64,000 bases of DNA, taken from positions 95,296,001-95,360,000 of the forward strand of contig CM059431.1 of assembly GCA_030390025.1 (NCBI GenBank). Direction: 5' to 3'. Below the pieces are notes generated by a model, which worked only from the letters and a program-made list of their open reading frames with translations, did no database searches and was not told the DNA's origin. The DNA is from Squalus acanthias (lineage: Eukaryota). Below are positions 20,075 through 64,000 of this stretch, one piece after another; the stretch's first letter is position 1; each line of letters opens with the position of its first letter. A program made the position numbers and the translations under genes.

Positions 20075-20520
20075 GAAGAAAGAGTTGCACTAATATTGTG
20101 CTTTTCACAACCTGAGGATGTACCAAAGCGCTTTTCAGCCAATGAAGTATGTTTGAAGTGCAGTCACAGTTGTAATGTAGGAAACGCGGCAGCCAATTTT
20201 GCGCACAGCAAGCTCCCACAAACAGCAGTGTGATAATGACTAGATCATCTGTTTTAGTCATGTTTAGTCAGGGATAAATCTTGGCCAGGACAGCAGGGAG
20301 ACCTCCCCTGATCATCTTCGCAATAGTGCCATGGGATAATTTGCATCCACTTTAGAGAGCAGACGGAGCCTCAGTTTAACGACTCATCCAAAAGACGGCA
20401 CTTCTGACAGTGCTGCTCTCCCTCAGTACTGCACTTGAGTGTCAGCCTAGATTTTCTGCTCAATTGAATCCACAACCTTCTGTCGCAAAGGCGAGTACTG
20501 CCACTGAGCCACAGTTGACA
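20075..20520 (-). mobile_element. tRNA-derived SINE with Deu-like core and L2-type tail (SacSINE1-like)
   Basis: Minus-strand A box TGGCTCAGTGG, core ...ATCCCATGGCACTATT..., tail AAAGCGCTTTGGTACATCCTCAGGTTGTGAAAAGCAC. Family name is from recall, not a search. Confidence 0.75.
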
Positions 20521-30085: not shown

Positions 30086-30224
30086 TCACTCGCAGAGGGA
30101 ATGATGCGGAGATGCCGGCGTTGGACTGGGGTGGACAAAAATGAGAAGTTGCACAACACCAGGTTATAGTCCAACAGTTTTATTTGAAATTACGAGCTTT
30201 TGGAGCTCTGCTTTCAGAGCACTG

Positions 30225-30259
30225 TACCTGACGAAGGAGCAGAGCTCCGAAAGCTCGTA
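30225..30259 (+). ncRNA. Minimal hammerhead ribozyme motif (second variant)
   Basis: UAC-CUGACGA-A-GGAGC-AGA-GCUCC-GAAA-G-CUC^GUA: core, 5-bp stem II, 3-bp stem I, palindromic AGCU helix III. Confidence 0.68.
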
Positions 30260-30278
30260 ATTTCAAATAAAACTGTTG

Positions 30279-31051
30279 GGGGGAAAAATTCAGCTGCTTG
30301 CGCCTCCCGTTAGCACCTTAAGAGGGCGCTAATGGGGCGTAAAGCAGCTAACGCCCGGGCGCAGCGCCGCCCACGCCTCCCGTAAAATTCAGCAGGAGGT
30401 TAGCGGCGGCGCCAGCCGGTAGCGCCCTGTGGCGCTGCGCCGCCGGCGATGACGTCATCGCCGTGCGCAGCACCCCGCTCGCGCTCCAGCCGCGATCTTC
30501 AGTCGCGCCCCCTGATTTACCGCCAGACGCTATGTCCGACGGGTTCAGGGAGGCGTACGTGCGGCCGGGGCGGCGATATTTAAAGGGGAGGTGGCAGGCG
30601 GCCATTTTTGTTGCTGGCCGCCTGCCAGCACCTGCCCCCGTTGCTGTCCCCGGCCCCCGTGAAGCTCCCCCACCGTGAAGTGCCGGCTGCGCTCCAAGAG
30701 CCCGGCACTTCTCTTGAGTGCCGGGCTCTTTTGCCGGCACTCCCGATCCCTGGGGGCCCAGCTGGGCCCCGGTTCGCGCTGCGCAGGGTCCCTCCCCTTT
30801 AAGAAGGGGAGGAAGGCCTGCAATACCGCGGCGCGACGTGCCGCAGCGCCTGGCGCTGCGGCACGTAGCGCCAGGATATTCCCTCGCAGCGCCCCAAGAG
30901 AGATGCGGGGTGCTTCCAGTGGCGCCCCGCTTCCCTCTTGGGGCGCAACCACTGAAGTTCCGGCGCGGGGCTGCTAATTTTTTCGGGGCGCTAAAAGTAG
31001 CGCCCCGGCGAGGTTAGCGCCCCAAATGGGGCGCGACTCAATTTTTACCCC
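30279..31051. mobile_element. Harbinger-type MITE (family A), CpG-rich
   Basis: TIRs GGGGGAAAAATT / AATTTTTACCCC; TTG TSD; excision restores CTGTTGGACTATAACC, the complement of the other palindrome arm. Confidence 0.92.
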
Positions 31052-39273: not shown

Positions 39274-40199
39274 AACGCTCCTGACTTTCTGGTCATTAAA
39301 ATTTAGTATCAGGAAATCAGATGCTGACCGCCACACTCTGCCTTGTGCTCTCATTGAGCCAGACTCCACTTCTGAAATCTCCTAAACTTATCCCAGAGTT
39401 TAACACATTCATTACTCCCAACAAATAACAAGTATACTGGTCTTATATTTATATCTACATTTTTTCTCATAAGGAGCCGTGTTTACTTTGCTCTGCAGGC
39501 TGACCTCTACTGATCTATTTGATAAGTTGCCAGCAGACCAACCCGTGGGAAAGTTTCCTACATATCAAACCAGATTTCTGAGATAGGCTCATTGCTTTTT
39601 AAAAAAATGTGACAACTGCTGGTAAAAGATCATGTTTATTCAGCTTGGGTTTATTCTTTTAAGCCAGCTACATGTTTTGTCTCAATGTGAAGTGGTTTCT
39701 GCTCGGCATCAAATCAAACTGTAAGGTGTAACCTGGGTGTGAAGTCCAGAGCTTTGGACATCAGTGTGATATTTCTAGTGACAAGCTGTGTACCTGAGAT
39801 ATTGCTTCATGCCAGGAATGTAAACAAAATGATCCCTGATGAATTGCCTTCTCCATTAATTAAAGACTGCAACCTGGATTTCCTTCATCAAATTGGCATG
39901 AAGACACTGTAAGCTGTGTGATTGGTGGGAGAACTTGGGCTGGAACTCTTTGTTCCTTTTTCAACCCATCAAAATTTCTAGTAGACTTGGAGAAGAGCAT
40001 ATAAGACAACCCTTCCCAATTAGGTGGGAGTATTACGATGCCATATGTATGAGGGAAATATGACACAGGACATTTGCACATAGCAACACTGGGTGCTAAA
40101 GACACTTGTGCATCTCTAATTTCCAGCATTGCTAAGAGTCTCAGGGAGATTTAAAAGTTTACCAGACTGTTCACAGCACATCCAACCTCATACCTTCTC

Positions 40200-40722
40200 C
40201 AGCACCAACATTGCCTACTTCCTACTGGCCTTCTATTTTCCATAAACTTCAGCTCATCCCAAACTCTGATACCCATATCCTATCCTATACTAATCACATT
40301 CAACCATCACCTCTGTTCTCACTGATCTACATTGGTTCCTAGTCCCCCAACACATCAAATTAAAAATTCTTGTCCTTTTGTTTAAATCCCTCCATGGCCT
40401 CACCCCTCCCTCTCTCCGTAATCTTCTCCAGCCCTATATCAGTTTAAACTCTCTTTTCCTCTGATTCTGGTCTCTTGTGCATGTCGCAATTCTTCACTCC
40501 ACCATTGGTAGCCATGCTTTCAGCCGCCCAGATACCACACTCAGAAATTCCATCCCTAAACCCCTCTGCCTCTCCACCTCTTTCTCCTCCTTTAAGACCA
40601 TGTTTAAAACCCATCTTACACCCCTTCAAGCTTCTCCTTTGGCTCGGTGTCTATTTTTCTCATCCCCTTATGAAGTGCCTTGAGCATTTTTCCATGTTAA
40701 AATGCTATATAGATGCAAGTTG
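40200..40722 (+). mobile_element. L2 LINE 3' end
   Basis: KLQLI.N...ITSVLTDLHW...KILVLLFKSLHGL C-terminal motifs; tail ATGCTATATAGATGCAAGTTG. Confidence 0.8.
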
Positions 40723-41159
40723 CACACAGGCTTTGATTCAAAAATTCAGGATAGCTTGAGACATAAGCAAAAAACAAACAGACTGTTGTCACAGACATTA
40801 TTTACACTTTGCAACACTCTGGACTGTATTCTTATCTTTGAAAAGTAAAGTTATGAGAATACAATAATGTTTGTTGAGCCCCAGGAAAGACAATGGCCGT
40901 AGCGTTGCTGCAAGCCCCATGTCTCTGACTCTAGCCCTGGTTCCGAGATTACCCATTTCCACATGGTCTCTATGCAGCAACTCAACTTGGACAGTTTGTT
41001 CATTCATGTTGTATGTGTATCTCTTTCTCTCTCCCCTCCTCTCTCACAATCACAATTTCTAAATTACATCTAAGATCATAACACTGCTTAGTTTCACTGA
41101 CCAGAAACTTAAGATACCCTTAAACAGGGTAATGAAATGGATGAGGCGGGGGGCGGGGT

Positions 41160-41794
41160 ATTTTTTATGTCATTGTTCCCGACATGGACCATGACAACTG
41201 GACCTCCCCCACCCTTTCCAAGTTCCTCCCCAGTTGCTCCAAGATGTCCTTTACTCTGTGCCAGACAGGTAACACTCCCTCCTGGACTCTTGGTCGTGAC
41301 TACAATGGATGCTATCTATCCCCCTAATTATGGAATCCCCTGTGATGATAACATTTATATTATGATTTTCACTTCCTCCCCATTGGGCCGCCTCCTGCTC
41401 AACAGTGCCATGATTAGTAATCTGGCCATCCTCCCTGCAGCCTTCATCCTTATCCTCACAGGTATCAAGTTACATTGTAACTATTGGATAGGACCAGTGT
41501 CTGCAGAACCTTCTTCTCCATCGTCCCTTGGTACCCACTACCCTACTGACTGACAGTCACACTCTCCCCTTCCTGCAGTTGTGCTTTCCTCTGAGGTGTG
41601 ACTGTACTCTGGAGAAAACTATCCAGAAATTCCTCCTCCTCCCTTGTGTCAGTGTGTCTCTAGCTCGCATTCGAGCTCAATGACTCTAAGCTGGAGTTTC
41701 TCCAGGCATTTCCTGCAGATGTGGCAATCCAGGACATCTCACTGTCCACAAATTCCCACATACTGCAGTCCCAACACAGAACCTGAACTGCCAT
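41160..41794 (-). pseudogene. CR1 ORF1 (zinc finger/leucine zipper + SGNH esterase), degraded
   Basis: MAVQVLCWDCSMWEF...HICRKCLEKLQLRVIELE; ITGDSIIRGID; VMVHVGNND. Confidence 0.8.
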
Positions 41795-41912: not shown

Positions 41913-42172
41913 TTAGTGGACGAGTTCAAGTAGGTTTTTCCCTCGTGATGGTTCTCTCATCACCTGTCGCAGGCCCAGACTGGCAGTTATGTCCTTCAGG
42001 ACTCGGCCAGCGTAGTCAGTGGTGGTGCTACCGAGCCACTCTTGGTGATGGACATTGAAGTCCCCAACCCAGAGTACATTCTGTGCCCTTGCTATTCTTA
42101 GTGCTTCTTCCAAGTGGTGTTCAACATGGAGGAGTACTGATTCATCAGCTGAGGGAGGGCAGTAGGTGGTAA
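41913..42172 (-). pseudogene. LINE APE endonuclease fragment (not the CR1 type seen elsewhere in the window; possibly same family as 1-483)
   Basis: NVLWVGDFNVHHQEWLGSTTTD...LRQVMREPSRGKNLLELV. Confidence 0.8.
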
Positions 42173-42173
42173 C

Positions 42174-45100
42174 AATGCACTTTGGAACATCCTGAGGAAG
42201 TTCTAAGGTGCTTTATTAATGCATTTTGGGAGTTCCTGAGGATGTTATGAGGTGTTGCATCAAAGCACTTTGGGAGATGCTGATGATGTGGTAAGCTGTT
42301 GTATCAATTTACTTTGAGGGGTCCTGTTGATGTGAAAAGGTACTGTATGAATGCAGTTTGGGAGATCCTGAGGGTGTTAGGATGCTATATAATGCGCTAT
42401 TGGAGATCCCGAGGATGAGAGAAGGATCTGTACAAATGTATTGGGAGATCCTGAGGATGTTATAAGGTGCTATATCAATGGACTTTGGGAGATGCTGAAG
42501 AAGTCATAAACTGCTGTATGAATGTCAATTTAAGAGGTCTTGTGGATGTGAAAATGTGCTGTATGAATGCATTTTGGGAAAACTTGAGGATGTTTTATGC
42601 TGTGATATGACTGTACCTTTGGAGATCCTGAGTATGAGAAAAGGGGCTGTCCAAATCCACTGGGAGATCCTCAGGATGCTATAAGGTGCTGTATGACTGC
42701 ACTTTGGGAGATCCTGAGGATGTGATAAGGAGCTTTATCAATGCACTTTTTGAGATCCTGAGGATGTTTTAAGATGCCACAAAAATGCAGTTAAGGATAA
42801 TCGAAGGATGTGATAACATTCTTTATGAATACAGTTTCGGAGATCCTGAGCATGTGATAAGGTGCACTTTGCAGATTCTGGGGGTGTGATATGGTGCTGT
42901 ATTAATACAGTTTGGGAGATCCTGGGGGTGTGATATGGTGCTTTATGAATACAGTTTGGGAGATCCTGGGGGTGTGATATGGTGCTGTAGGAATACAGTT
43001 TGGGAGATCCTGGGGGTGTGATATGCTGCTGTAGGAATACAGTTTGGGAGATCCTGGGGTGTGATATGCTGCTGTATGAATACAGTTTGCGAGATCCTGG
43101 GGGTGTGATATGGTGCTGTAAGAATGCAGTTTGGGAGATCCTGGGGNNNNNNNNNNNNNNNNNNNNNNNNNNNNNNNNNNNNNNNNNNNNNNNNNNNNNN
43201 NNNNNNNNNNNNNNNNNNNNNNNNNNNNNNNNNNNNNNNNNNNNNNNNNNNNNNNNNNNNNNNNNNNNNNNNNNNNNNNNNNNNNNNNNNNNNNNNNNNN
43301 NNNNNNNNNNNNNNNNNNNNNNNNNNNNNNNNNNNNNNNNNNNNNNTTTGGGAGATCCTGGGGGTGTGATATGGTGCTGTATGAAAGCACTTTGAGAGAT
43401 CCTAGGGGTGTGATATGCTGCTGTATGAATACAGTTTGGGAGATCCTGGGGGTGTGATATGATGCTGTATGAATACAGGTTGTGAGATCCTGGGGCTGTG
43501 ATATGGTGCTGTATGAATGCAGTTTGGTAGATCCTGGGGGTGTGATATGGTGCTGTAAGAATGCAGTTTGGTAGATCCTGGGGGTGTGATATGGTGCTTA
43601 ATGAATACAGTTTGGGAGATCCTGGGGCTGTGATATGGTGCTGTATGAATGCAGTTTGTGAGATCCTGGGGGTGTGTTATGGTGCTGTACGAATGCAGTT
43701 TGTGAGAACTTGTGGATCTGATATGATGCTGTATGAATGCAGTTTGGGAGATCCTGGGGGTGTGATATGGTGCTGTATGAATACAGTTTGGGAAATAATG
43801 GGTGTGTGATATGGTGCTGTATGAATGCAGTGTGGGAGATCCTGGGGGTGGGATATGGTGCTGTATGAATGCAGTTTGGGAGATCCTTGTGGTGTGATAT
43901 GGTGCTGCATGAATGCAGTTTGGGAGATCCTGGGGGTGTGATATGGTGCTGTATGAATGCAGTTTGGGAGATCCTGGGGGTGTGATATGGTGCTGTATGA
44001 ATGCAGTTTGGGAGATCCTGGGGGTGTGATATGTTACTGTACGAATACAGTTTGGGAGATCCTGGGGGTGTGATATGGTACTGTATGAATGCAGTTTGGG
44101 AGATCCTGGGGGTGTGATATGTTACTGTACGAATACACTATGCAGTTCCTGGGGGTGTGATATGGTGCTGTATTTATACAGTTTGGGAGATCCTGGGGGT
44201 GTGATATGGTGCTGTATGAATACAGTTTGGGAGATCCGGGGGTGTGATATGCTGCTGTATGAATACAGTTTGGGAGATCCCGGGGGTGTGATATGGTGCT
44301 GTACGAATGCAGTTTGGGAGATCCTGGGGGTGTGATATGGTGGTTTATGAATACAGTTTGGGAGATCCTGGGGTGAGATATGGTGCTGTATGAATGCACT
44401 TTGGGAGATCCTGGGGGTGTGATATGGTGCTGTATGAAAGCACTTTGAGAGATCCTAGGGGTGTGATATGCTGCTGTATGAATACAGTTTGGGAGATCCT
44501 GGGTGTGTGATATGATGCTGTATGAATACAGGTTGTGAGATCCTGTGGGTGTGATATGGTGCTGTAAGAATGCAGTTTGGTAGATCCTGGGGGTGTGATA
44601 TGGTGCTTAATGAATACAGTTTGGGAGATCCTGGGGCTGTGTTATGGTGCTGTATGAATGCAGTTTGTGAGATCCTGGGGGTGTGTTATGGTGCTGTACA
44701 AATGCAGTTTGTGAGAACTTGTGGATCTGATATGGTGCTGTATGAATGCAGTTTGGGAGATCCTGGGGGTGTGATATGGTGCTGTATGAATGCAGTTTGG
44801 GAGATCCTGTGGGTGTGATATGGTGCTGTATGAATACAGTTTGGGAAATAATGGGTGTGTGATATGGTGCTGTATGAATGCAGTGTGGGAGATCCTGGGG
44901 GTGGGATATGGTGCTGTATGAATGCAGTTTGGGAGATCCTTGTGGTGTGATATGTTGCTGCATGAATGCAGTTTGGGAGATCCTGGGGTTGTGATATGGT
45001 GCTGTATGAATGCAGTTTGGGAGATCCTGGGGGTGTGATATGTTACTGTACGAATACACTATGCAGTTCCTGGGGGTGTGATATGGTGCTGTATTTATAC

Positions 45101-48100
45101 AGTTTGGGAGATCCTGGGGGTGTGATATGGTGCTGTATGAATGCAGTTTGGGAGATCCTGGGGGTGTGATATGCTGCTGTATGAATACAGTTTGGGAGAT
45201 CCTGGGGGTGTGATATGGTGCTGTATGAATGCAGTTTGGGAGATCCTGGGGGTATGATATGCTGCTTTATGAATACAGTTTGGGGTTCCTGGGGGTCTGA
45301 TGTGGTACTGTATGAATACAGTTCGTGAGATCCTGGGGGTGTGATATGGTGCCGTATGAATGCAGTTTGGGAGATTCTGGGGGTGTGATATGGTGTTCTA
45401 TGAATACAGTGTGGGAGATCCTGAATGTGTGATATGGTGCTGTATGAATGCAGTTTGGGAGATCCTGGGGGTGTGATATTGTGCTGTATGAATACAGTTT
45501 GGGAGATCCTGGGGTGAGATATGGTGCTGTATGAATGCAGTTTGGGAGATCCTTGGGGTGTGATATGGTGCTGTATGAATGCAGTTTGGGAGATCCTGGG
45601 GGCGTGATATGGTGCTGTATGAATACAGTTTGGGAGATCCTGGGGTGTGATATGGTGCTGTATGAATGCAGTTTGGGAGATCCTTGGGGTGTGATATGGT
45701 GCTGTATGAATACAGTTTTGGAGATCCTGGGGGTGTGATATGATGCTGTATGAATACAGGTTGTGAGATCCTGTGGGTGTGATATGGTGCTGTAAGAATG
45801 CAGTTTGGTAGATCCTGGGTGTGTGATATGGTGCTTAATGAATACAGTTTGGGAGATCCTGGGGCTGTGATATGGTGCTGTATGAATGCAGTTTGGGAGA
45901 TCCTGGGGGTGTGTTATGGTGCTGTACGAATGCAGTTTGTGAGAACTTGTGGATCTGATATGGTGCTGTATGAATGCAGTTTGGGTGATCCTGGGGGTGT
46001 GATATGGTGCTGTATGAATACAGTTTGGGAAATAATGTGTGTGTGATATGGTGCTGTATGAATGCAGTGTGGGAGATCCTGGGGGTGGGATATGTTACTG
46101 TATGAATACAGTTTGGGAGATCCTTGTGGTGTGATATGGTGTTGTATGAATGCAGTTTGGGAGATCCTGGGGGTGTGATATGTTACTGTATGAATACAGT
46201 TTGGGAGATCCTTGTGGTGTGATATGGTGCTGTACGAATGCAGTTTGTGAGAACTTGTGGATCTGATATGGTGCTGTATGAATGCAGTTTGGGAGATCCT
46301 GGGGGTGTGTTATGGTGCTGTATGAATACAGTTTGGGAGATCCTGGGGGTGTGATATGGTGCTGTATGAATGCAGTTTGGGAGATCCTGGGGGTGTGATA
46401 TGTTACTGTATGAATACAGTTTGGGAGATCCTGGGGGTGTGATATGGTGCTGTATGAATACAGTTTGGGAGATCCTGGGGGTGTGATATGGTGCTGTATG
46501 AATACAGCTTGGGAGATCCTTGTGATGTGATATGGTGCTGTATGAATGCAGTTTGGGAGATCCTTGTGATGTGATATGATGCTGTATGAATACAGTTTGG
46601 GAGATCCTTGTGGTGTGATATGGTGCTGTATGAATGCAGTTTGGGAGATCCTGGGGGTGGGATATGTTACTGTACGAATACAGTTTGGGAGATCCTGGGG
46701 GTGTGATATGTTACTGTACGAATTAGGTTTGGGAGATCCTGGGGGTGTGATATGGTGCTGTATGAATGCAGTTTGGCAGATCCTGGGGATGTGATACGGT
46801 GCTGTATGAATGCAGTTTGGGAGATCCTGGGGGTGTGATATGGTGCTTTATGAATACAGTTTGGGGTTCCTGGGGGTCTGATGTGGTGCTGTATGAATGC
46901 AGTTTGGGAGATCCTTGGGGTGTGATATGGTGCTGTATGAATACAGTTTTGGAGATCCTGGGGGTGTGATATGATGCTGTATGAATACAGGTTGTGAGAT
47001 CCTGTGGGTGTGATATGGTGCTGTATGAATGCAGTTTGGGAGATCCTGGGGGTGTGATATGGTGCTGTATGAATACAGTTTGGGAAATAATGTGTGTGTG
47101 ATATGGTGCTGTATGAATGCAGTTTGGAAGATCCTGGGGGTGTGATATGGTGCTATACGAATGCAGTTTGGGAGATCCTGGGGGTGTGATATGGTGCTTT
47201 ATGTATACAGTTTGGGAGATCCTGGGGTTGTGATATGCCGCTGTATGAATGCAGTTTGGGAGATCCTGGGGGTGTGATATTGTGCTGTATTTATACAGTT
47301 TGGAAGATCCTGGGGGTGTGATATGGTGCTGTATGAATACAGTTTGGGAGATCCTGCAGGTGTGATATGGTGTTGTATGAATACAGTTTGGGAGATCCTG
47401 GGGGTGTGATATGGTGCTGTATGAATACAGTTTGGGAGATCCTGGGGTTGTGATATGGTGCTGTATGAATACAGGTTGGGAGATCCTGGGGGTGTGATAT
47501 GATGCTGTATGAATACAGTTTGGGAGATCCTGGGGTTGTGGTATGGTGCTGTAAGAATGTAGTTTGGGAGATCCTGGGGTGTGATACGGTGCTGTATGAA
47601 TGCACTTTGGGAGATCCTGTCTGTGTGATATGGTGCTGTATGAAAGCACTTTGGGAGATCCTGGGGGTGTGATATGGTGCTGTATGAATACAGTTTGGGA
47701 GATCCTGGGTGTGTGATATGGTGCTGTATGAAAGCACTTTGGGAGATCCTGGGGGTGTGATATGCTGCTGTGTGAATACAGTTTGGGAGATCCTGAAGCT
47801 GTGATATTGTGCTGTATGAATGCAGTTTGGGAGATCCTGGGGATGTGATATGGTGCTGTATGAATGCAGTTTGGGAGATCCTGGGGGTGTGATATTGTGC
47901 TGTATTTATACAGTTTGGAAGATCCTGGGGGTGTGATATGGTGCTATACGAATGCAGTTTGGGAGATCCTGGGGGTGTGATATGGTGCTTTATGTGTACA
48001 GTTTGGGAGATCCTGGGGGTGTGATATGCCGCTGTATGAATACAGTTTTGGAGATCCTGGGGTGTGATATGGTGCTGTACGAATGCAGTTTAGGGATCCT

Positions 48101-51100
48101 GGGGGTCTGATGTGGTGCTGCATGAATGCAGTTTGGGAGATTCTGGGGGTGTGATATGCTGCTGTATGAATGCAGTTTGTGAGATCCTGGGGGTGTGATA
48201 TGGTATGTATGAATACAGGTTAGGAGATCCTGTGGGTGTGATATGGTGCTGTACGAATGCAGTTTGGGAGATCCTGGGGGTGTGATATGGTGCTGTATGA
48301 ATGTAGTTTGGGAGATCCTGGGGTGTGATACGGTGCTGTATGAATGCATTTGGGAGATCCTGGGGTGTGATATGGTGCTGTACGAATGCAGTTTGGGAGA
48401 TCCTGGGGGTGGGATATGTTACTGTACGAATACAGTTTGGGAGATCCTGAAGCTGTGATATTGTGCTCTATGAATACAGTTTGGGAGATCCTGGGGTGTG
48501 ATATGGTGCTGTACGAATGCAGTTTGGGAGATCCTGGGGGTGTGATATGCTGCTGTATGAATACAGTTTGGGAGATCCTGCAGGTGTGACATGGTGCTGT
48601 ATGAATACAGTTTGGGAGATCCTGGGGTGTGATATGGTGCTGTACGAATGCAGTTTAGAGTTCCTGGGGGTCTGATGTGGTACTGTATGAATACCGTTTG
48701 GGAGATTCTGGGGGTGTGATATGCTGCTGTATGAATGCAGTTTTTGAGATCCTGGGGGTGTGATATGGTGCTGTATGAATACAGTTTGGGAGATCCTGGG
48801 GGTGTGATATGGTGCTGTATGAATACAGTTTGGGAGATCCTGGGGGTGCGATATGGTGCTGTATGAATACAGTTTGGGAGATCCTGGGGGTGTGATATGG
48901 TGCTGTATGAATACAGTTTGGGAGATCCTGGGGGTGTGATATGGTGCTGTATGAATACAGTTTGGGAGATCCTGGGGGTGTGATATGTTACTGTACGAAT
49001 GCAGTTTGGGAGATCCTGGGGGTGTGATATGGTGCTATATGAATACTGTTTGCGAGATCCTGGGGGTGTGATATGGTTCTGTACGAAGGCAGTTTGTGAG
49101 AACTTGTGGATGTGATATGGTGCTGTATGAATACAGTTTGGGAGATCCTGGGGGTGTGATATGGTGCTGTATGAATGCAGTTTGGGAGATCCTGGGGGTG
49201 TGATATGGTGCTGTATGAATACAGTTTGGGAGATCCTGGGGGTGTGATATGGTGCTGTATGAATACAGTTTGGGAGATCCTGGGGGTGTGATATGGTGCT
49301 GTATGAATACAGTTTGGGAGATCCTGGGGGTGTGATATGGTGCTGTATGAATACAGTTTGGGAGATCCTGGGGGTGTGATATGTTACTGTACGAATGCAG
49401 TTTGGGAGATCCTGGGGCTGTGATATGGTGCTATATGAATACTGTTTGCGAGATCCTGGGGGTGTGATATGGTTCTGTATGAAGGCAGTTTGTGAGAACT
49501 TGTGGATGTGATATGGTGCTGTATGAATACAGTTTGGGAGATCCTGGGGGTGTGATATGGTGCTGTATGAATGCAGTTTGGGAGATCCTGGGGGTGTGAT
49601 ATGGTGCTGTACGAAGGCAGTTTGTGAGAACTTGTGGATGTGATATGGTGCTGTATGAATACAGTTTGTGAGATCCTGGGGTTGTGATATGGTGCTGTAT
49701 GAATACAGGTTGGGAGATCCTGGGGGTGTGATATGATGCTGTATGAATACAGTTTGGGAGATCCTGGGGTTGTGGTATGGTGCTGTAAGAATGTAGTTTG
49801 GGAGATCCTGGGGTGTGATACGGTGCTGTATGAATGCACTTTGGGAGATCCTGGGGGTGTGATATGGTGCTGTATGAAAGCACTTTGGGAGATCCTGGGG
49901 GTGTGATATGGTGCTGTATGAATACAGTTTGGGAGATCCTGGGTGTGTGATATGGTGCTGTATGAAAGCACTTTGGGAGATCCTGGGGGTGTGATATGCT
50001 GCTGTGTGAATACAGTTTGGGAGATCCTGAAGCTGTGATATTGTGCTCTATGAATACAGTTTGGGAGATCCTGGGGGTGTGATATGGTGCTGTATGAATG
50101 CAGTTTGGGAGATCCTGGGGATGTGATATGGTGCTGTATTTATACAGTTTGGAAGATCCTGGGGGTGTGATATGGTGCTATACGAATGCAGTTTGGGAGA
50201 TCCTGGGGGTGTGATATTGTGCTGTATTTATACAGTTTGGAAGATCCTGGGGGTGTGATATGGTGCTATACGAATGCAGTTTGGGAGATCCTGGGGGTGT
50301 GATATGGTGCTTTATGTGTACAGTTTGGGAGATCCTGGGGGTGTGATATGCCGCTGTATGAATACAGTTTTGGAGATCCTGGGGTGTGATATGGTGCTGT
50401 ACGAATGCAGTTTAGGGATCCTGGGGGTCTGATGTGGTGCTGCATGAATGCAGTTTGGGAGATTCTGGGGGTGTGATATGCTGCTGTATGAATGCAGTTT
50501 GTGAGATCCTGGGGGTGTGATATGGTATGTATGAATACAGGTTAGGAAATCCTGGGGGTTTGATATGGTGCTGTACGAATGCAGTTTGGGAGATCCTGGG
50601 GGTTTGATATGGTGCTGTATGAATGTAGTTTGGGAGATCCTGGGGTGTGATACGGTGCTGTATGAATGCATTTGGGAGATCCTGGGGTGTGATATGGTGC
50701 TGTACGAATGCAATTTGGGAGATCCTGGGGGTGGGATATGTTACTGTACGAATACAGTTTGGGAGATCCTGAAGCTGTGATATTGTGCTCTATGAATACA
50801 GTTTGGGAGATCCTGGGGGTGTGATATGGTGCTGTATGAATGCAGTTTGGGAGATCCTGGGGGTGTGATATGGTGCTGTATGAATGCAGTTTGGGAGATC
50901 CTGGGGTGTGATATGGTGCTGTACGAAGGCAGTTTGTGAGAACTTGTGGATGTGATATGGTGCTGTATGAATGCAGTTTGGGAGATCCTGGGGGTGTGAT
51001 ATTGTGCTGTATTTATACAGTTTGGAAGATCCTGGGGGTGTGATATGGTGCTATACGAATGCAGTTTGGGAGATCCTGGGGGTGTGATATGCTGCTGTAT

Positions 51101-54100
51101 GAATACAGTTTGGGAGATCCTGCAGGTGTGACATGGTGCTGTATGAATACAGTTTGGGAGATCCTGGGGTGTGATATGGTGCTGTACGAATGCAGTTTAG
51201 AGTTCCTGGGGGTCTGATGTGGTACTGTATGAATACCGTTTGGGAGATTCTGGGGGTGTGATATGCTGCTGTATGAATGCAGTTTTTGAGATCCTGGGGG
51301 TGTGATATGGTGCTGTATGAATACAGTTTGGGAGATCCTGGGGGTGTGATATGGTGCTGTATGAATACAGTTTGGGAGATCCTGGGGGTGTGATATGGTG
51401 CTGTATGAATACAGTTTGGGAGATCCTGGGGGTGTGATATGGTGCTGTATGAATACAGTTTGGGAGATCCTGGGGGTGTGATATGGTGCTGTATGAATAC
51501 AGTTTGGGAGATCCTGGGGGTGTGATATGTTACTGTACGAATGCAGTTTGGGAGATCCTGGGGCTGTGATATGGTGCTATATGAATACTGTTTGCGAGAT
51601 CCTGGGGGTGTGATATGGTTCTGTACGAAGGCAGTTTGTGAGAACTTGTGGATGTGATATGGTGCTGTATGAATACAGTTTGGGAGATCCTGGGGGTGTG
51701 ATATGGTGCTGTATGAATGCAGTTTGGGAGATCCTGGGGGTGTGATATGGTGCTGTACGAAGGCAGTTTGTGAGAACTTGTGGATGTGATATGGTGCTGT
51801 ATGAATACAGTTTGGGAGATCCTGGGGGTGTGATATGGTGCTGTATGAATACAGTTTGGGAGATCCTGGGGTATGATATGGTGCTGTACGAATGCAGTTT
51901 AGGGATCCTGGGGGTCTGATGTGGTACTGTATGAATACAGTTCGTGAAATCCTGGGCGTGTGATATGGTGCTGCATGAATGCAGTTTGGGAGATTCTGGG
52001 GGTGTGATATGCTGCTGTATGAATGCAGTTTGTGAGATCCTGGGGTTGTGATATGGTGCTGTATGAATAAAGGTTTGGAGATCCTGGGGGTGTGATATGA
52101 TGCTGTATGAATACAGTTTGGGAGATCCTGGGGTTGTGGTATGGTGCTGTATGAATGTAGTTTGGGAGATCCTGGGGTGTGATACGGTGCTGTATGAATG
52201 CACTTTGGGAGATCCTGGGGTGTGATATGGTGCTGTATGAAAGCACTTTGGGAGATCCTGGGGGTGTGATATGGTTCTGTATGAAAGCACTTTGGGAGAT
52301 CCTGGGGGTGTGATATGGTGCTGTATGAATACAGTTTGGGAGATCCTGGGGGTGTGATATGGTGCTGTATGAAAGCACTTTGGGAGATCCTGGGGGTGTG
52401 ATATGCTGCTGTGTGAATACAGTTTGGGAGATCCTGAAGCTGTGATATTGTGCTCTATGAATACAGTTTGGGAGATCCTGGGGGTGTGATATGGTGCTGT
52501 ATGAATGCAGTTTGGGAGATCCTGGGGATGTGATATGGTGCTGTATGAATGCAGTTTGGGAGATCCTGGGGGTGTGATATTGTGCTGTATTTATACAGTT
52601 TGGAAGATCCTGGGGGTGTGATATGGTGCTATACGAATGCAGTTTGGGAGATCCTGGGGGTGTGATATGGTGCTTTATGTGTACAGTTTGGGAGATCCTG
52701 GGGGTGTGATATGCCGCTGTATGAATACAGTTTTGGAGATCCTGGGGTGTGATATGGTGCTGTACGAATGCAGTTTAGGGATCCTGGGGGTCTGATGTGG
52801 TGCTGCATGAATGCAGTTTGGGAGATTCTGGGGGTGTGATATGCTGCTGTATGAATGCAGTTTGTGAGATCCTGGGGGTGTGATATGGTATGTATGAATA
52901 CAGGTTAGGAGATCCTGGGGGTTTGATATGGTGCTGTACGAATGCAGTTTGGGAGATCCTGGGGGTGTGATATGGTGCTGTATGAATGTAGTTTGGGAGA
53001 TCCTGGGGTGTGATACGGTGCTGTATGAATGCATTTGGGAGATCCTGGGGTGTGATATGGTGCTGTACGAATGCAGTTTGGGAGATCCTGGGGGTGGGAT
53101 ATGTTACTGTACGAATACAGTTTGGGAGATCCTGAAGCTGTGATATTGTGCTCTATGAATACAGTTTGGGAGATCCTGGGGGTGTGATATGGTGCTGTAT
53201 GAATGCAGTTTGGGAGATCCTGGGGGTGTGATATGGTGCTGTATGAATGCAGTTTGGGAGATCCTGGGGTGTGATATGGTGCTGTACGAAGGCAGTTTGT
53301 GAGAACTTGTGGATGTGATATGGTGCTGTATGAATGCAGTTTGGGAGATCCTGGGGGTGTGAAATAGTGCTGTATTTATACAGTTTGGAAGATCCTGGGG
53401 GTGTGATATGGTGCTATACGAATGCAGTTTGGGAGATCCTGGGGGTGTGATATGCTGCTGTATGAATACAGTTTGGGAGATCCTGCAGGTGTGACATGGT
53501 GCTGTATGAATACAGTTTGGGAGATCCTGGGGTGTGATATGGTGCTGTACGAATGCAGTTTAGAGTTCCTGGGGGTCTGATGTGGTACTGTATGAATACC
53601 GTTTGGAGATTCTGGGGGTGTGATATGCTGCTGTATGAATGCAGTTTTTGAGATCCTGGGGGTGTGATATGGTGCTGTATGAATACAGTTTGGGAGATCC
53701 TGGGGGTGTGATATGGTGCTGTATGAATACAGTTTGGGAGATCCTGGGGGTGTGATATGGTGCTGTATGAATACAGTTTGGGAGATCCTGGGGGTGTGAT
53801 ATGGTGCTGTATGAATACAGTTTGGGAGATCCTGGGGGTGTGATATGGTGCTGTATGAATACAGTTTGGGAGATCCTGGGGATGTGATATGTTACTGTAC
53901 GAATGCAGTTTGGGAGATCCTGGGGCTGTGATATGGTGCTATATGAATACTGTTTGCGAGATCCTGGGGGTGTGATATGGTTCTGTACGAAGGCAGTTTG
54001 TGAGAACTTGTGGATGTGATATGGTGCTGTATGAATACAGTTTGGGAGATCCTGGGGGTGTGATATGGTGCTGTATGAATGCAGTTTGGGAGATCCTGGG

Positions 54101-57100
54101 GGTGTGATATGGTGCTGTACGAAGGCAGTTTGTGAGAACTTGTGGATGTGATATGGTGCTGTATGAATACAGTTTGGGAGATCCTGGGGGTGTGATATGG
54201 TGCTGTATGAATACAGTTTGGGAGATCCTGGGGTATGATATGGTGCTGTACGAATGCAGTTTAGGGATCCTGGGGGTCTGATGTGGTACTGTATGAATAC
54301 AGTTCGTGAAATCCTGGGCGTGTGATATGGTGCTGCATGAATGCAGTTTGGGAGATTCTGGGGGTGTGATATGCTGCTGTATGAATGCAGTTTGTGAGAT
54401 CCTGGGGTTGTGATATGGTGCTGTATGAATAAAGGTTTGGAGATCCTGGGGGTGTGATATGATGCTGTATGAATACAGTTTGGGAGATCCTGGGGTTGTG
54501 GTATGGTGCTGTATGAATGTAGTTTGGGAGATCCTGGGGTGTGATACGGTGCTGTATGAATGCACTTTGGGAGATCCTGGGGTGTGATATGGTGCTGTAT
54601 GAAAGCACTTTGGGAGATCCTGGGGGTGTGATATGGTTCTGTATGAAAGCACTTTGGGAGATCCTGGGGGTGTGATATGGTGCTGTATGAATACAGTTTG
54701 GGAGATCCTGGGGGTGTGATATGGTGCTGTATGAAAGCACTTTGGGAGATCCTGGGGGTGTGATATGCTGCTGTGTGAATACAGTTTGGGAGATCCTGAA
54801 GCTGTGATATTGTGCTCTATGAATACAGTTTGGGAGATCCTGGGGGTGTGATATGGTGCTGTATGAATGCAGTTTGGGAGATCCTGGGGATGTGATATGG
54901 TGCTGTATGAATGCAGTTTGGGAGATCCTGGGGGTGTGATATTGTGCTGTATTTATACAGTTTGGAAGATCCTGGGGGTGTGATATGGTGCTATACGAAT
55001 GCAGTTTGGGAGATCCTGGGGGTGTGATATGGTGCTTTATGTATACAGTTTGGGAGATCCTGGGGGTGTGATATGCCGCTGTATGAATACAGTTTGGGAG
55101 ATCCTGCGGGTGTGACATGGTGCTGTATGAATACAGTTTTGGAGATCCTGGGGTGTGATATGGTGCTGTACGAATGCAGTTTAGGGATCCTGGGGGTCTG
55201 ATGTGGTACTGTATGAATACAGTTCGTGAAATCCTGGGCGTGTGATATGGTGCTATACGAATGCAGTTTGGGAGATTCTGGGGGTGTGATATGCTGCTGT
55301 ATGAATGCAGTTTGTGAGATCCTGGGGGTGTGATATGGTATGTATGAATACAGGTTAGGAGATCCTGGGGGTGTGATATGGTGCTGTACGAATGCAGTTT
55401 GGGAGATCCTGGGGGTGTGATATGGTGCTGTATGAATGTAGTTTGGGAGATCCTGGGGTGTGATACGGTGCTGTATGAATGCACTTTGGGAGATCCTGGG
55501 GTGTGATATGGTGCTGTACGAATGCAGTTTGGGAGATCCTGGGGGTGTGATATGGTGCTTTATGAATACAGTTTGGGAGATCCTGGGTCTGTGATATGGT
55601 GCTGTTTGAATACAGTTTGGGAGATCCTGAAGCTGTGATATTGTGCTCTATGAATACAGTTTGGGAGATCCTGGGGGTGTGATATGGTGCTGTATGAATG
55701 CAGTTTGGGAGATCCTGGGGATGTGATATGTTACTGTACGAATGCAGTTTGGGAGATCCTGGGGCTGTGATATGGTGCTATATGAATACTGTTTGCGAGA
55801 TCCTGGGGGTGTGATATGGTTCTGTACGAAGGCAGTTTGTGAGAACTTGTGGATGTGATATGGTGCTGTATGAATACAGTTTGGGAGATCCTGGGGGTGT
55901 GATATGGTGCTGTATGAATGCAGTTTGGGAGATCCTGGGGGTGTGATATGGTGCTGTACGAAGGCAGTTTGTGAGAACTTGTGGATGTGATATGGTGCTG
56001 TATGAATACAGTTTGGGAGATCCTGGGGGTGTGATATGGTGCTGTATGAATACAGTTTGGGAGATCCTGGGGTATGATATGGTGCTGTACGAATGCAGTT
56101 TAGGGATCCTGGGGGTCTGATGTGGTACTGTATGAATACAGTTCGTGAAATCCTGGGCGTGTGATATGGTGCTGCATGAATGCAGTTTGGGAGATTCTGG
56201 GGGTGTGATATGCTGCTGTATGAATGCAGTTTGTGAGATCCTGGGGTTGTGATATGGTGCTGTATGAATAAAGGTTTGGAGATCCTGGGGGTGTGATATG
56301 ATGCTGTATGAATACAGTTTGGGAGATCCTGGGGTTGTGGTATGGTGCTGTATGAATGTAGTTTGGGAGATCCTGGGGTGTGATACGGTGCTGTATGAAT
56401 GCACTTTGGGAGATCCTGGGGTGTGATATGGTGCTGTATGAAAGCACTTTGGGAGATCCTGGGGGTGTGATATGGTTCTGTATGAAAGCACTTTGGGAGA
56501 TCCTGGGGTGTGATATGGTGCTGTATGAATACAGTATGGGAGATCCTGGGGGTGTGATATGGTGCTGTATGAAAGCACTTTGGGAGATCCTGGGGGTGTG
56601 ATATGCTGCTGTGTGAATACAGTTTGGGAGATCCTGAAGCTGTGATATTGTGCTCTATGAATACAGTTTGGGAGATCCTGGGGGTGTGATATGGTGCTGT
56701 ATGAATGCAGTTTGGGAGATCCTGGGGATGTGATATGGTGCTGTATGAATGCAGTTTGGGAGATCCTGGGGGTGTGATATTGTGCTGTATTTATACAGTT
56801 TGGAAGATCCTGGGGGTGTGATATGGTGCTATACGAATGCAGTTTGGGAGATCCTGGGGGTGTGATATGGTGCTTTATGTATACAGTTTGGGAGATCCTG
56901 GGGGTGTGATATGCCGCTGTATGAATACAGTTTGGGAGATCCTGCGGGTGTGACATGGTGCTGTATGAATACAGTTTTGGAGATCCTGGGGTGTGATATG
57001 GTGCTGTACGAATGCAGTTTAGGGATCCTGGGGGTCTGATGTGGTACTGTATGAATACAGTTCGTGAAATCCTGGGCGTGTGATATGGTGCTATACGAAT

Positions 57101-60100
57101 GCAGTTTGGGAGATTCTGGGGGTGTGATATGCTGCTGTATGAATGCAGTTTGTGAGATCCTGGGGGTGTGATATGGTATGTATGAATACAGGTTAGGAGA
57201 TCCTGGGGGTGTGATATGGTGCTGTACGAATGCAGTTTGGGAGATCCTGGGGGTGTGATATGGTGCTGTATGAATGTAGTTTGGGAGATCCTGGGGTGTG
57301 ATACGGTGCTGTATGAATGCACTTTGGGAGATCCTGGGGTGTGATATGGTGCTGTACGAATGCAGTTTGGGAGATCCTGGGGGTGTGATATGGTGCTTTA
57401 TGAATACAGTTTGGGAGATCCTGGGTCTGTGATATGGTGCTGTTTGAATACAGTTTGGGAGATCCTGAAGCTGTGATATTGTGCTCTATGAATACAGTTT
57501 GGGAGATCCTGGGGGTGTGATATGGTGCTGTACGAATGCAGTTTGTGAGATCCTGGGGGTGTGATATGGTGCTGTACGAATGCAGTTTGTGAGAACTTGT
57601 GGATCTGATGTGGTGCTGTATGAATGCAGTTTGGGAGATCCTGGGGGTGTGATATGGTGCTGTATGAATACAGTTTGGGAAATCCTGGGTGTGTGATATG
57701 GTGCTGTATGAATGCAGTGTGGGAGATCCTGGGGGTGGGATATGTTACTGTACGAATACAGTTTGGGAGATCCTGAAGCTGTGATATTGTGCTCTATGAA
57801 TACAGTTTGGGAGATCCTGGGGGTGTGATATGGTGCTGTACGAAGGCAGTTTGTGAGAACTTGTGGATGTGATATGGTGCTGTATGAATGCAATTTGGGA
57901 GATCCTGGGGGTGTGATATTGTGCTGTATTTATACAGTTTGGAAGATCCTGGGGGTGTGATATGGTGCTGTACGAATGCTGTTTGGGAGATCCTGGGGGT
58001 GTGATATGGTGCTGTATGAATGTAGTTTGGGAGATCCTGGGGTGTGATACGGTGCTGTATGAATGCATTTGGGAGATCCTGGGGTGTGATATGGTGCTGT
58101 ACGAATGCAGTTTGGGAGATCCTGGGGGTGGGATATGTTACTGTACGAATACAGTTTGGGAGATCCTGAAGCTGTGATATTGTGCTCTATGAATACAGTT
58201 TGGGAGATCCTGGGGGTGTGATATGGTGCTGTATGAATGCAGTTTGGGAGATCCTGGGGCTGTGATATGGTGCTGTATGAATGCAGTTTGGGAGATCCTG
58301 GGGTGTGATATGGTGCTGTACGAATGCAGTTTGTGAGAACTTGTGGATGTGATATGGTGCTGTATGAATGCAGTTTGGGAGATCCTGGGGGTGTGATATT
58401 GTGCTGTATTTATACAGTTTGGAAGATCCTGGGGGTGTGATATGGTGCTATACGAATGCAGTTTGGGAGATCCTGGGGGTGTGATATGCTGCTGTATGAA
58501 TACAGTTTGGGAGATCCTGCAGGTGTGACATGGTGCTGTATGAATACAGTTTGGGAGATCCTGGGGTGTGATATGGTGCTGTACGAATGCAGTTTAGAGT
58601 TCCTGGGGGTCTGATGTGGTACTGTATGAATACCGTTTGGGAGATTCTGGGGGTGTGATATGCTGCTGTATGAATGCAGTTTTTGAGATCCTGGGGGTGT
58701 GATATGGTGCTGTATGAATACAGTTTGGGAGATCCTGGGGGTGTGATATGGTGCTGTATGAATACAGTTTGGGAGATCCTGGGGGTGTGATATGGTGCTG
58801 TATGAATACAGTTTGGGAGATCCTGGGGGTGTGATATGGTGCTGTATGAATACAGTTTGGGAGATCCTGGGGGTGTGATATGGTGCTGTATGAATACAGT
58901 TTGGGAGATCCTGGGGGTGTGATATGTTACTGTACGAATGCAGTTTGGGAGATCCTGGGGCTGTGATATGGTGCTATATGAATACTGTTTGCGAGATCCT
59001 GGTGGTGTGATATGGTGCTGTACGAAGGCAGTTTGTGAGAACTTGTGGATGTGATATGGTGCTGTATGAATACAGTTTGGGAGATCCTGGGGGTGTGATA
59101 TGGTGCTGTATGAATGCAGTTTGGGAGATCCTGGGGGTGTGATATGGTGCTGTACGAAGGCAGTTTGTGAGAACTTGTGGATGTGATATGGTGCTGTATG
59201 AATACAGTTTGGGAGATCCTGGGGGTGTGATATGGTGCTGTATGAATACAGTTTGGGAGATCCTGGGGTATGATATGGTGCTGTACGAATGCAGTTTAGG
59301 GATCCTGGGGGTCTGATGTGGTACTGTATGAATACAGTTCGTGAAATCCTGGGCGTGTGATATGGTGCTGCATGAATGCAGTTTGGGAGATTCTGGGGGT
59401 GTGATATGGTGCTGTATGAATACAGGTTGGGAGATCCTGGGGGTGTGATATGATGCTGTATGAATACAGTTTGGGAGATCCTGGGGTTGTGATATGGTGC
59501 TGTATGAATGTAGTTTGGGAGATCCTGGGGTGTGATACGGTGCTGTATGAATGCACTTTGGGAGATCCTGGGGTGTGATATGGTGCTGTATGAAAGCACT
59601 TTGGGAGATCCTGGGGGTGTGATATGGTGCTGTATGAAAGCACTTTGGGAGATCCTGGGGGTGTGATATGGTGCTGTATGAATACAGTTTGGGAGATCCT
59701 GGGGGTGTGATATGGTGCTGTATGAAAGCACTTTGGGAGATCCTGGGGGTGTGATATGCTGCTGTGTGAATACAGTTTGGGAGATCCTGAAGCTGTGATA
59801 TTGTGCTCTATGAATACAGTTTGGGAGATCCTGGGGGTGTGATATGGTGCTGTATGAATGCAGTTTGGGAGATCCTGGGGATGTGATATGGTGCTGTATG
59901 AATGCAGTTTGGGAGATCCTGGGGGTGTGATATTGTGCTGTATTTATACAGTTTGGAAGATCCTGGGGGTGTGATATGGTGCTATACGAATGCAGTTTGG
60001 GAGATCCTGGGGGTGTGATATGGTGCTTTATGTATACAGTTTGGGAGATCCTGGGGGTGTGATATGCCGCTGTATGAATACAGTTTGGGAGATCCTGCGG

Positions 60101-63100
60101 GTGTGACATGGTGCTGTATGAATACAGTTTTGGAGATCCTGGGGTGTGATATGGTGCTGTACGAATGCAGTTTAGGGATCCTGGGGGTCTGATGTGGTAC
60201 TGTATGAATACAGTTCGTGAAATCCTGGGCGTGTGATATGGTGCTATACGAATGCAGTTTGGGAGATTCTGGGGGTGTGATATGCTGCTGTATGAATGCA
60301 GTTTGTGAGATCCTGGGGGTGTGATATGGTATGTATGAATACAGGTTAGGAGATCCTGGGGGTGTGATATGGTGCTGTACGAATGCAGTTTGGGAGATCC
60401 TGGGGGTGTGATATGGTATGTATGAATACAGGTTAGGAGATCCTGGGGGTGTGATATGGTGCTGTATGAATGTAGTTTGGGAGATCCTGGGGTGTGATAC
60501 GGTGCTGTATGAATGCACTTTGGGAGATCCTGGGGTGTGATATGGTGCTTTATGAATACAGTTTGGGAGATCCTGGGTCTGTGATATGGTGCTGTTTGAA
60601 TACAGTTTGGGAGATCCTGAAGCTGTGATATTGTGCTCTATGAATACAGTTTGGGAGATCCTGGGGGTGTGATATGGTGCTGTACGAATGCAGTTTGTGA
60701 GATCCTGGGGGTGTGATATGGTGCTGTACGAATGCAGTTTGTGAGAACTTGTGGATCTGATGTGGTGCTGTATGAATGCAGTTTGGGAGATCCAGGGGGT
60801 GTGATATGGTGCTGTATGAATACAGTTTGTGAAATCCTGGGTGTGTGATATGGTGCTGTATGAATGCAGTGTGGGAGATCCTGGGGGTGGGATATGTTAC
60901 TGTACGAATACAGTTTGGGAGATCCTGAAGCTGTGATATTGTGCTCTATGAATACAGTTTGGGAGATCCTGGGGGTGTGATATGGTGCTGTATGAATGCA
61001 ATTTGGGAGATCCTGGGGGTGTGATATTGTGCTGTATTTATACAGTTTGGAAGATCCTGGGGGTGTGATATGGTGCTATACGAATGCAGTTTGGGAGATC
61101 CTGGGGGTGTGATATGCTGCTGTATGAATACAGTTTGGGAGATCCTGCAGGTGTGACATGGTGCTGTATGAATACAGTTTGGGAGATCCTGGGGTGTGAT
61201 ATGGTGCTGTACGAATGCAGTTTAGAGTTCCTGGGGGTCTGATGTGGTACTGTATGAATACCGTTTGGGAGATTCTGGGGGTGTGATATGCTGCTGTATG
61301 AATGCAGTTTTTGAGATCCTGGGGGTGTGATATGGTGTTGTATGAATACAGTTTGGGAGATCCTGGGGGTGTGATATGGTGCTGTATGAATACAGTTTGG
61401 GAGATCCTGGGGGTGTGATATGGTGCTGTATGAATACAGTTTGGGAGATCCTGGGGGTGTGATATGGTGCTGTATGAATACAGTTTGGGAGATCCTGGGG
61501 GTGTGATATGGTGCTGTATGAATACAGTTTGGGAGATCCTGGGGGTGTGATATGGTGCTGTATGAATACAGTTTGGGAGATCCTGGGGGTGTGATATGTT
61601 ACTGTACGAATGCAGTTTGGGAGATCCTGGGGCTGTGATATGGTGCTATATGAATACTGTTTGCGAGATCCTGGGGGTGTGATATGGTTCTGTACGAAGG
61701 CAGTTTGTGAGAACTTGTGGATGTGATATGGTGCTGTATGAATACAGTTTGGGAGATCCTGGGGGTGTGATATGGTGCTGTATGAATGCAGTTTGGGAGA
61801 TCCTGGGGGTGTGATATGGTGCTGTACGAAGGCAGTTTGTGAGAACTTGTGGATGTGATATGGTGCTGTATGAATACAGTTTGGGAGATCCTGGGGGTGT
61901 GATATGGTGCTGTATGAATACAGTTTGGGAGATCCTGGGGTATGATATGGTGCTGTACGAATGCAGTTTAGGGATCCTGGGGGTCTGATGTGGTACTGTA
62001 TGAATACAGTTCGTGAAATCCTGGGCGTGTGATATGGTGCTGCATGAATGCAGTTTGGGAGATTCTGGGGGTGTGATATGCTGCTGTATGAATGCAGTTT
62101 GTGAGATCCTGGGGTTGTGATATGGTGCTGTATGAATAAAGGTTTGGAGATCCTGGGGGTGTGATATGATGCTGTATGAATACAGTTTGGGAGATCCTGG
62201 GGTTGTGGTATGGTGCTGTATGAATGTAGTTTGGGAGATCCTGGGGTGTGATACGGTGCTGTATGAATGCACTTTGGGAGATCCTGGGGTGTGATATGGT
62301 GCTGTATGAAAGCACTTTGGGAGATCCTGGGGGTGTGATATGGTTCTGTATGAAAGCACTTTGGGAGATCCTGGGGGTGTGATATGGTGCTGTATGAATA
62401 CAGTTTGGGAGATCCTGGGGGTGTGATATGGTGCTGTATGAAAGCACTTTGGGAGATCCTGGGGGTGTGATATGGTGCTGTATGAATGCAGTTTGGGAGA
62501 TCCTGGGGGTGTGATATTGTGCTGTATTTATACAGTTTGGAAGATCCTGGGGGTGTGATATGGTGCTATACGAATGCAGTTTGGGAGATCCTGGGGGTGT
62601 GATATGGTGCTTTATGTATACAGTTTGGGAGATCCTGGGGGTGTGATATGCCGCTGTATGAATACAGTTTGGGAGATCCTGGGGGTGTGATATTGTGCTG
62701 TATTTATACAGTTTGGAAGATCCTGGGGGTGTGATATGGTGCTATACGAATGCAGTTTGGGAGATCCTGGGGGTGTGATATGGTGCTTTATGTATACAGT
62801 TTGGGAGATCCTGGGGGTGTGATATGCCGCTGTATGAATACAGTTTGGGAGATCCTGGGGTGTGATATGGTGCTGTTTGAATACAGTTTGGGAGATCCTG
62901 AAGCTGTGATATTGTGCTCTATGAATACAGTTTGGGAGATCCTGGGGGTGTGATATGGTGCTGTACGAATGCAGTTTGTGAGATCCTGGGGGTGTGATAC
63001 GGTGCTGTATGAATGCAGTTTGGGAGATCCTGGGGGTGTGATATGGTGCTGTATGAATACAGTTTGGGAAATCCTGGGTGTGTGATATGGTGCTGTATGA

Positions 63101-64000
63101 ATGCAGTGTGGGAGATCCTGGGGGTGGGATATGTTACTGTACGAATACAGTTTGGGAGATCCTGAAGCTGTGATATTGTGCTCTATGAATACAGTTTGGG
63201 AGATCCTGGGGGTGTGATATGGTGCTGTACGAAGGCAGTTTGTGAGAACTTGTGGATGTGATATGGTGCTGTATGAATGCAATTTGGGAGATCCTGGGGG
63301 TGTGATATTGTGCTGTATTTATACAGTTTGGAAGATCCTGGGGGTGTGATATGGTGCTGTACGAATGCAGTTTGGGAGATCCTGGGGGTGTGATATGGTG
63401 CTGTATGAATGTAGTTTGGGAGATCCTGGGGTGTGATACGGTGCTGTATGAATGCATTTGGGAGATCCTGGGGTGTGATATGGTGCTGTACGAATGCAGT
63501 TTGGGAGATCCTGGGGGTGGGATATGTTACTGTACGAATACAGTTTGGGAGATCCTGAAGCTGTGATATTGTGCTCTATGAATACAGTTTGGGAGATCCT
63601 GGGGGTGTGATATGGTGCTGTATGAATGCAGTTTGGGAGATCCTGGGGCTGTGATATGGTGCTGTATGAATGCAGTTTGGGAGATCCTGGGGTGTGATAT
63701 GGTGCTGTACGAAGGCAGTTTGTGAGAACTTGTGGATGTGATATGGTGCTGTATGAATGCAGTTTGGGAGATCCTGGGGGTGTGATATTGTGCTGTATTT
63801 ATACAGTTTGGAAGATCCTGGGGGTGTGATATGGTGCTATACGAATGCAGTTTGGGAGATCCTGGGGGTGTGATATGCTGCTGTATGAATACAGTTTGGG
63901 AGATCCTGCAGGTGTGACATGGTGCTGTATGAATACAGTTTGGGAGATCCTGGGGTGTGATATGGTGCTGTACGAATGCAGTTTAGAGTTCCTGGGGGTC
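42174..64000. repeat. 44-bp satellite (TTTGGGAGATCCTGGGGGTGTGATATGGTGCTGTATGAATACAG)n, >21 kb, continues past the window
   Basis: Direct 44-bp periodicity (e.g. 42911, 42955); degenerate edge at 42174-42870. Confidence 0.98.
43147..43346. other. Assembly gap (200 N)
   Basis: Run of N. Confidence 0.99.

Follow-up and report, generated by a model that had tools for sequence, protein, structure and literature searches.

A 44-bp satellite array in a shark genome with a probable origin in a SINE-type retroposon tail

That transposons can give rise to satellites is already known, and a SINE-derived origin is already described in reptiles: Vassetzky, Kosushkin and Ryskov (2023) reported the SINE-derived satellites sSat1-3 of squamates and called the occurrence of sSats outside squamates uncertain (PMC10702118). 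Sharks carry the SINE family SacSINE1, with copies of 97-463 bp that are about 75% identical to their consensus, and the tails of SacSINE1-type elements and CmiSINE are common to the LINE L2-2_CM (PMC5499810); in the accessible part of PMC10468316, SacSINE1 is named merely as an entry of a masking library. LINEs of the stringent type (UnaL2, ZfL2-1/2) possess a 3' tail hairpin that is recognised by the LINE protein (PMC4176376, PMC3747384). With regard to tandem repeats, shark genomes are reported to have more simple ones on short chromosomes and at chromosome ends (10.1101/2022.10.17.512540). In the open-access literature (Repbase and Dfam lay outside the search), we found no description of the 44-bp repeat reported here.

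This repeat forms an array of at least 21 kb that reaches past the end of the analysed window, a stretch of 64,000 nucleotides of Squalus acanthias (Table 1). We propose that it is probably a transposon-derived satellite, which arose from a SINE-type tail in two stages by DNA-level processes. Its resemblance to the sSats is considerable. In the sSats the tandem unit is part of a tRNA-derived SINE, as it probably is here; in both cases it is present in hundreds of copies, longer arrays are more homogeneous with sub-variants that alternate, and DNA recombination is the proposed origin (PMC10702118). Consistent with the way in which sSats are defined, the 44-bp unit is shorter than the SINE to part of which it is homologous, and far more than four middle units (16 edge and 475 interior) lie head to tail. 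However, the unit of 44 bp is smaller than the approximately 67-290 nt of the sSats and, unlike theirs, holds the terminal LINE-derived hairpin only (PMC10702118). The sSats usually, though not universally, have an extended terminal unit (PMC10702118), whereas none is visible here: at the left end of the array, the right end being beyond the window, no longer terminal unit runs on into a SINE. The sSats also occupy many loci and tend to be subtelomeric (PMC10702118). Conversely, an old, apparently ancestral block beside a young derived array is a feature of this locus, unlike the sSats as presented in the accessible part of PMC10702118.

Table 1. Coordinates of the satellite array and of related elements in the window.
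Feature	Position	Strand	Remarks
Old SINE copy with putative tRNA-type head	20080..20512	-	A box match, degenerate B box
SINE tail segment of 43 nt, corresponding to one satellite unit	20092..20134	-	31/43 to edge consensus
Decayed LINE 3' end	40180..40722	+	Tail at 40673-40722 is also related to the satellite unit, but more remotely
Internal LINE fragment, 255 bp	41918..42172	-	Piece of a single-ORF APE-RT LINE with many copies; breaks off precisely at array start
44-bp satellite array	42173/42174 to window end	+	Old block, transition unit, interior units, gap, young array
Old block	42173..42865	+	16 decayed 44-bp units of apparently ancestral type; 70% pairwise identity
First unit	42174..42217	+	SINE base kept at column 15; unusually perfect hairpin
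Transition unit	42866..42903	+	Follows an 11-bp deletion at TGC microhomology near 42865
First homogenised (interior-type) units	42904..43146	+	Upstream of gap
Assembly gap	43147..43346		Exactly 200 N
Young homogenised array	43347..64000	+	About 470 units

The array was split into 499 rows, of which 16 edge and 475 interior units were analysed; the eight rows left out were the transition unit, six rows that contain N and another with many gaps. The first-pass annotation had put the length of the array at more than 21 kb, and the array does run off the end of the window, but this length spans a scaffolded join with a 200-N assembly gap at 43147-43346.

A SINE origin of the unit had been suggested on the basis of a 24-base match between 42174-42197 and the reverse of 20111-20134. 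The letters and coordinates of this match are correct (20/24, 83.3%), but by itself it is not significant, with a BLAST E of 0.45 when the edge region is compared with the 42-kb flank, in which it is not the top match. The similarity was also said to continue beyond these 24 bases, and we found that it covers the whole unit. Between the edge consensus, built from 16 units, and the SINE tail, 31 of 43 positions agree and one 1-base gap is needed; carried on into the next unit, the alignment has 36 matches in 51 columns. The interior consensus agrees with the tail at 28 of 43. Across both strands of positions 1-42170, the SINE tail is the best glocal match of the edge consensus, with a score of 54 against a flank-wide null of 40.4±2.7 and none of 150 dinucleotide shuffles as good, and an HMM of the edge units likewise puts it first (E=0.012). 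The SINE tail is also the best match of the interior consensus in the flank, although the score of 45 was equalled or exceeded in 10 of 150 shuffles and is not significant. In a pairwise test, 0 of 1500 shuffles equalled the edge consensus and 0 of 1500 the interior consensus. At the level of sequence, this whole-unit homology shows that the 44-bp unit has its origin in a 3' tail of SINE/L2 type, in support of the original suggestion on this point.

Chance resemblance, or descent from the part of CR1 ORF2 that encodes M-H-F-G-R, appears hardly credible to us. Those codons have 14 bases in common with the start of the unit, a CR1 copy at 10264-10300 is the second match of the edge consensus (HMM E 0.033), and the E of 0.45 for the 24-base match alone would fit chance. 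However, the 10264-10300 match scores just 43 on the scale of the null given above, and the SINE match spans the full unit and polarises the differences between edge and interior units. A CR1 ORF2 origin was also rejected as a candidate because all five motif-bearing CR1 copies match the unit at just 19-22 of 44 positions in any rotation.

The SINE at 20080-20512 is the sole copy within 1-42170. Pattern scans for further copies of the SINE or the satellite in viral, prokaryote and metagenome sequences gave 0 matches, which is uninformative because these collections contain little vertebrate DNA. We tentatively take this element to be SacSINE1/Deu-like, with a central domain that presumably resembles Deu, neither assignment being based on alignment to a published consensus. 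No TSD longer than 5 nt was detected around it, ARAGORN returned 0 tRNA matches, the SINE head included, and Rfam gave 0 matches in 1-44000. The published consensus of the SINE family was not found in supplementary files of PMC4824008 and PMC5804259 or by a motif search of papers, and the tail comparison used a single decayed SINE copy and a single tail of L2 type as references. Like SacSINE1, the copy seems to have a tRNA-like head and a LINE-shared tail, and its 433 decayed base pairs fit the 97-463 bp range of that family (PMC5499810). Tandem amplification of the tail, as seen in the array, is not described for SacSINE1 or CmiSINE in the accessible part of PMC5499810. A pair of imperfect direct repeats of 6 nt each, 43 bases apart (20134-20129 and 20091-20086), brackets the hairpin of the SINE tail.

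A further tail of this kind belongs to the LINE at 40180-40722, which we tentatively take to be L2-type by its C-terminal motif; comparison of this LINE with the atlas gave no family name. The SINE tail can be aligned with the LINE tail at 40673-40722 (to which the same tentative label applies). At columns 36, 37 and 39, in which the SINE copy deviates, the LINE tail has the bases of the edge units. The loop of the satellite unit is SINE-like, whereas the loop of the L2-type tail is different and shorter, and this tail scores 27.5 against the edge consensus, outside the top six flank matches. That the same DNA-level history began from the partner LINE or another tail-sharing element and not from the SINE is a possibility that we regard as unlikely. 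Such a donor would agree with the tail held in common by L2-2_CM and the SacSINE1-type and CmiSINE elements (PMC5499810) and with a unit that consists of tail sequence only, with no SINE body attached. Against it stand the divergent loop and far lower score of the only LINE-type tail in the window, a comparison in which the true partner LINE is absent.

Returning to the proposed SINE-type tail as donor, the edge and interior units differ in a manner that indicates the direction of change. The two consensus sequences differ at four columns (7, 22, 25 and 33), in agreement with the motif difference claimed previously, and the SINE carries the edge state at columns 7, 22 and 33 and neither state at column 25. 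At these three diagnostic columns the SINE state has frequencies of 0.50, 0.88 and 0.88 in the edge units and of 0.07, 0.04 and 0.00 in the interior. When the consensus sequences were bootstrapped, identity to the SINE was at least 30 for the edge in 1929 of 2000 replicates and at most 28 for the interior in all 2000. Individual units do not follow this trend, with a mean identity to the SINE of 26.0/43 for edge units (n=16) and 26.5/43 for interior units (n=475; p=0.14). Edge units depart from their own consensus at 8.4 of 44 columns, compared with 3.1 for interior units, and it is because of this decay that single edge units are not closer to the SINE. Seen together, the per-unit and consensus results make the edge an old, decayed block from a more SINE-like founder and not one end of a gradient. 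By sequence comparison, the edge block retains ancestral states, as the first-pass annotation had argued: the claim stands for the consensus, at three of the four diagnostic columns and in the pairing of the stem, but fails for edge monomers taken singly.

Pairwise identity is 88.6% among interior units (120 of 475 sampled) and 70.3% within the 16-unit block, the greater homogeneity of long arrays being the pattern of concerted evolution seen in sSats. The switch from edge to interior is abrupt, an 11-bp deletion being followed by a mixed-state unit with the edge state at column 7 and the interior states at columns 22, 25 and 33. Since both states of column 7 occur on both backgrounds, the order of the changes is blurred. 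The old block has a weak periodicity of five units (about 219 bp), and positions 43736-43779 are identical to the interior consensus. Throughout 43347-64000, column 4 is nearly even between G and A (243/227 of 471), and the plus strand of this stretch has a G skew of about +0.55.

The stem formed by GCACTTT and AAGGTGC has all seven pairs in the edge consensus, six in the SINE copy and five of seven in the interior consensus, the fold of which has a z of -0.8. The predicted fold of the ancestral unit resembles the stem-loop of stringent LINEs, but the amplified units differ from it in two stem mismatches (PMC4176376, PMC3747384). The hairpin of the first unit is exceptional, with 12+3 pairs, -20.2 kcal/mol and a z of -5.7, whereas the remaining 15 edge units range from -4.1 to -9.5. 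Pairing is gained through each of the changes that the first unit has at columns 13, 15, 29 and 30, which suggests palindrome correction by template switching.

The array begins at the end of a LINE fragment (41918-42172) that matches PF14529 (E 3.9e-9) and corresponds to residues about 130-220 of relatives 935-983 amino acids long, the closest named protein being from a shark. In each of the four runs compared, out of 23, 127-257 contigs contain the LINE's own continuation beyond 42172, and among the contigs listed none spans the 42172 junction with 31 letters on either side. These contigs leave the window at 42172, which makes the start of the array a breakpoint, and the seed may have been a unit other than the first. 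No SINE body, promoter head or TSD occurs at the left end of the array, the right end being beyond the window.

Sequence from the best-matching organism in a second sample agrees with 42167-42368 except for one difference and with 42425-42697 except for five. In another species (organism D), a single 751-nt contig spans 42343-42896 with 34 mismatched letters and 15 gaps, corresponding to about 94% identity, and extends 184 bases past the match to the old block. Since this match of about 94% covers a block whose own units are only 70% alike, we read it as orthologous, and given equal rates the age of the old block would be about five to six times that of the divergence from organism D. The left flank at 41000-41609 is spanned by a contig of a further organism (B) at about 95%, with 30 mismatched letters and a single gap, so that the locus can be traced in relatives. 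Read depth, which does not give copy number, was 3818, 2.9, 38 and 1.6 at bin 42856-42900 in runs X5, X6, X11 and X15, and likewise without bearing on copy number 206-1907 in all four runs at the bins over units 42435 and 42696. Runs X6 and X15 have coverage holes over the old block, and such holes prove nothing.

In the young array, the identity of units to their consensus shows no trend with position, and exact 250-mers recur at offsets of 1838, 2362 and 3153 bp and longer, each across a limited stretch. A unit-lag scan of the interior produced a weak peak at 54 units only (0.903 versus a median of 0.888); the block repeats are therefore irregular duplications and not a regular higher-order repeat. 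Exact recurrence of kilobase blocks is characteristic of unequal crossing-over or of block duplication by replication-based processes. The recognition hairpin expected of a repeat amplified by reverse transcriptase is not retained in the amplified units, and because the interior stem is weakened, selection for recognition by this enzyme does not fit the growth of the array. Together, the exact 1.8-3.2 kb blocks and the loss of two of seven stem pairs point to amplification at the DNA level and not by reverse transcriptase.

We hypothesise that the terminal hairpin of the SINE tail, located between the 6-nt repeats, was initially doubled head to tail, potentially via slipped-strand mispairing or unequal crossing-over. 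The start of the unit fits this: its first six bases are similar to the downstream repeat, and the bases after them are those that come after the upstream repeat. A 1-base insertion would then have turned 43 into 44 bp. The founder reached at least 16 units, after which homogenisation ceased and the block decayed to its present pairwise identity of 70%. Kilobase duplications of a variant changed at columns 22, 25 and 33, and mostly at 7, then built up the young array. With the LINE breakpoint as the left end of the old block, the SINE body would have been lost or would never have been at the locus.

At the seed step, no trace at this locus separates DNA slippage from slippage of reverse transcriptase. 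The seed could alternatively have been made during target-primed reverse transcription, with the LINE enzyme slipping or jumping back across its recognition hairpin and thereby writing tandem tails, and in one variant an inversion similar to twin priming could have joined the antisense LINE fragment to the sense tails. The unit coincides nearly exactly with the terminal hairpin and a spacer, the first unit has a near-perfect hairpin, the LINE-5' end of the fragment faces the array as in an inversion, and template slippage on a short 3' repeat has been described for UnaL2 (PMC3747384). Nevertheless, we consider this distinctly unlikely, since slippage in UnaL2 involves 5-nt repeats and not a 43-nt unit (PMC3747384), the locus is devoid of a TSD and a SINE head, and the stem pairs were lost in later amplification. 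Furthermore, tblastn with 11 proteins related to the APE fragment gave no match to the L2-type 3' end at 40180-40722, and a 5'-truncated insertion or a repair event would account for the junction just as well. The first-pass annotation had raised the possibility of a seed by such slippage or template jumping, a view that finds no support in the LINE breakpoint at 42172 with its lack of SINE body and TSD, in the weakened stem or in the kilobase duplications of DNA. An extended version, in which the LINE reverse transcriptase wrote the first tandem tails, mobile multi-tail RNAs seeded several loci and one of these escaped into satellite growth, is quite improbable in our opinion; if true, tails written by reverse transcriptase would constitute a direct route from retroposon to satellite with its stages kept side by side.

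Under the preferred history of DNA-level growth from a SINE-type tail, SINE-derived satellites would be extended from squamates to cartilaginous fishes, in their smallest form, with one terminal hairpin as the unit. The putative donor, the old block with its ancestral states, the transition unit and the array of young units would all lie within one window. As the locus keeps all stages and the old block is common to species, the order of changes during the birth of a satellite becomes testable in sharks. The array itself is most likely neutral satellite DNA.

The window includes additional repeats and coding remnants. A second satellite at 3348-6943 has a 32-bp unit in about 114 copies, with a C-rich strand and long, spurious proline-rich ORFs, and smaller arrays are located at 7244-7844 (39 bp, 15 copies, decayed) and 22018-22419 (37 bp, 11 copies, 94%); tandem TTAGGG is absent from the window. 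An open frame of 539 codons at 8442-10061 (-) encodes RVT_1 (E 4.7e-38) and represents the 3' half of a CR1-type ORF2, with at least four further decayed CR1 copies in the flank. The 452-codon open frame at 25056-26414 (-) is Penelope-like with a C-terminal GIY-YIG match just under the cut-off (E 2.8e-4), and a DDE_Tnp_4 (Harbinger-like) fragment at 12248-13018 (+) is also under the cut-off (E 0.001). Palindromes are found near 18110-18175, 29949-30062, 30171-30279, 30822-30880 and 33285-33327, and these self-inverted stretches may be MITE-like ends.
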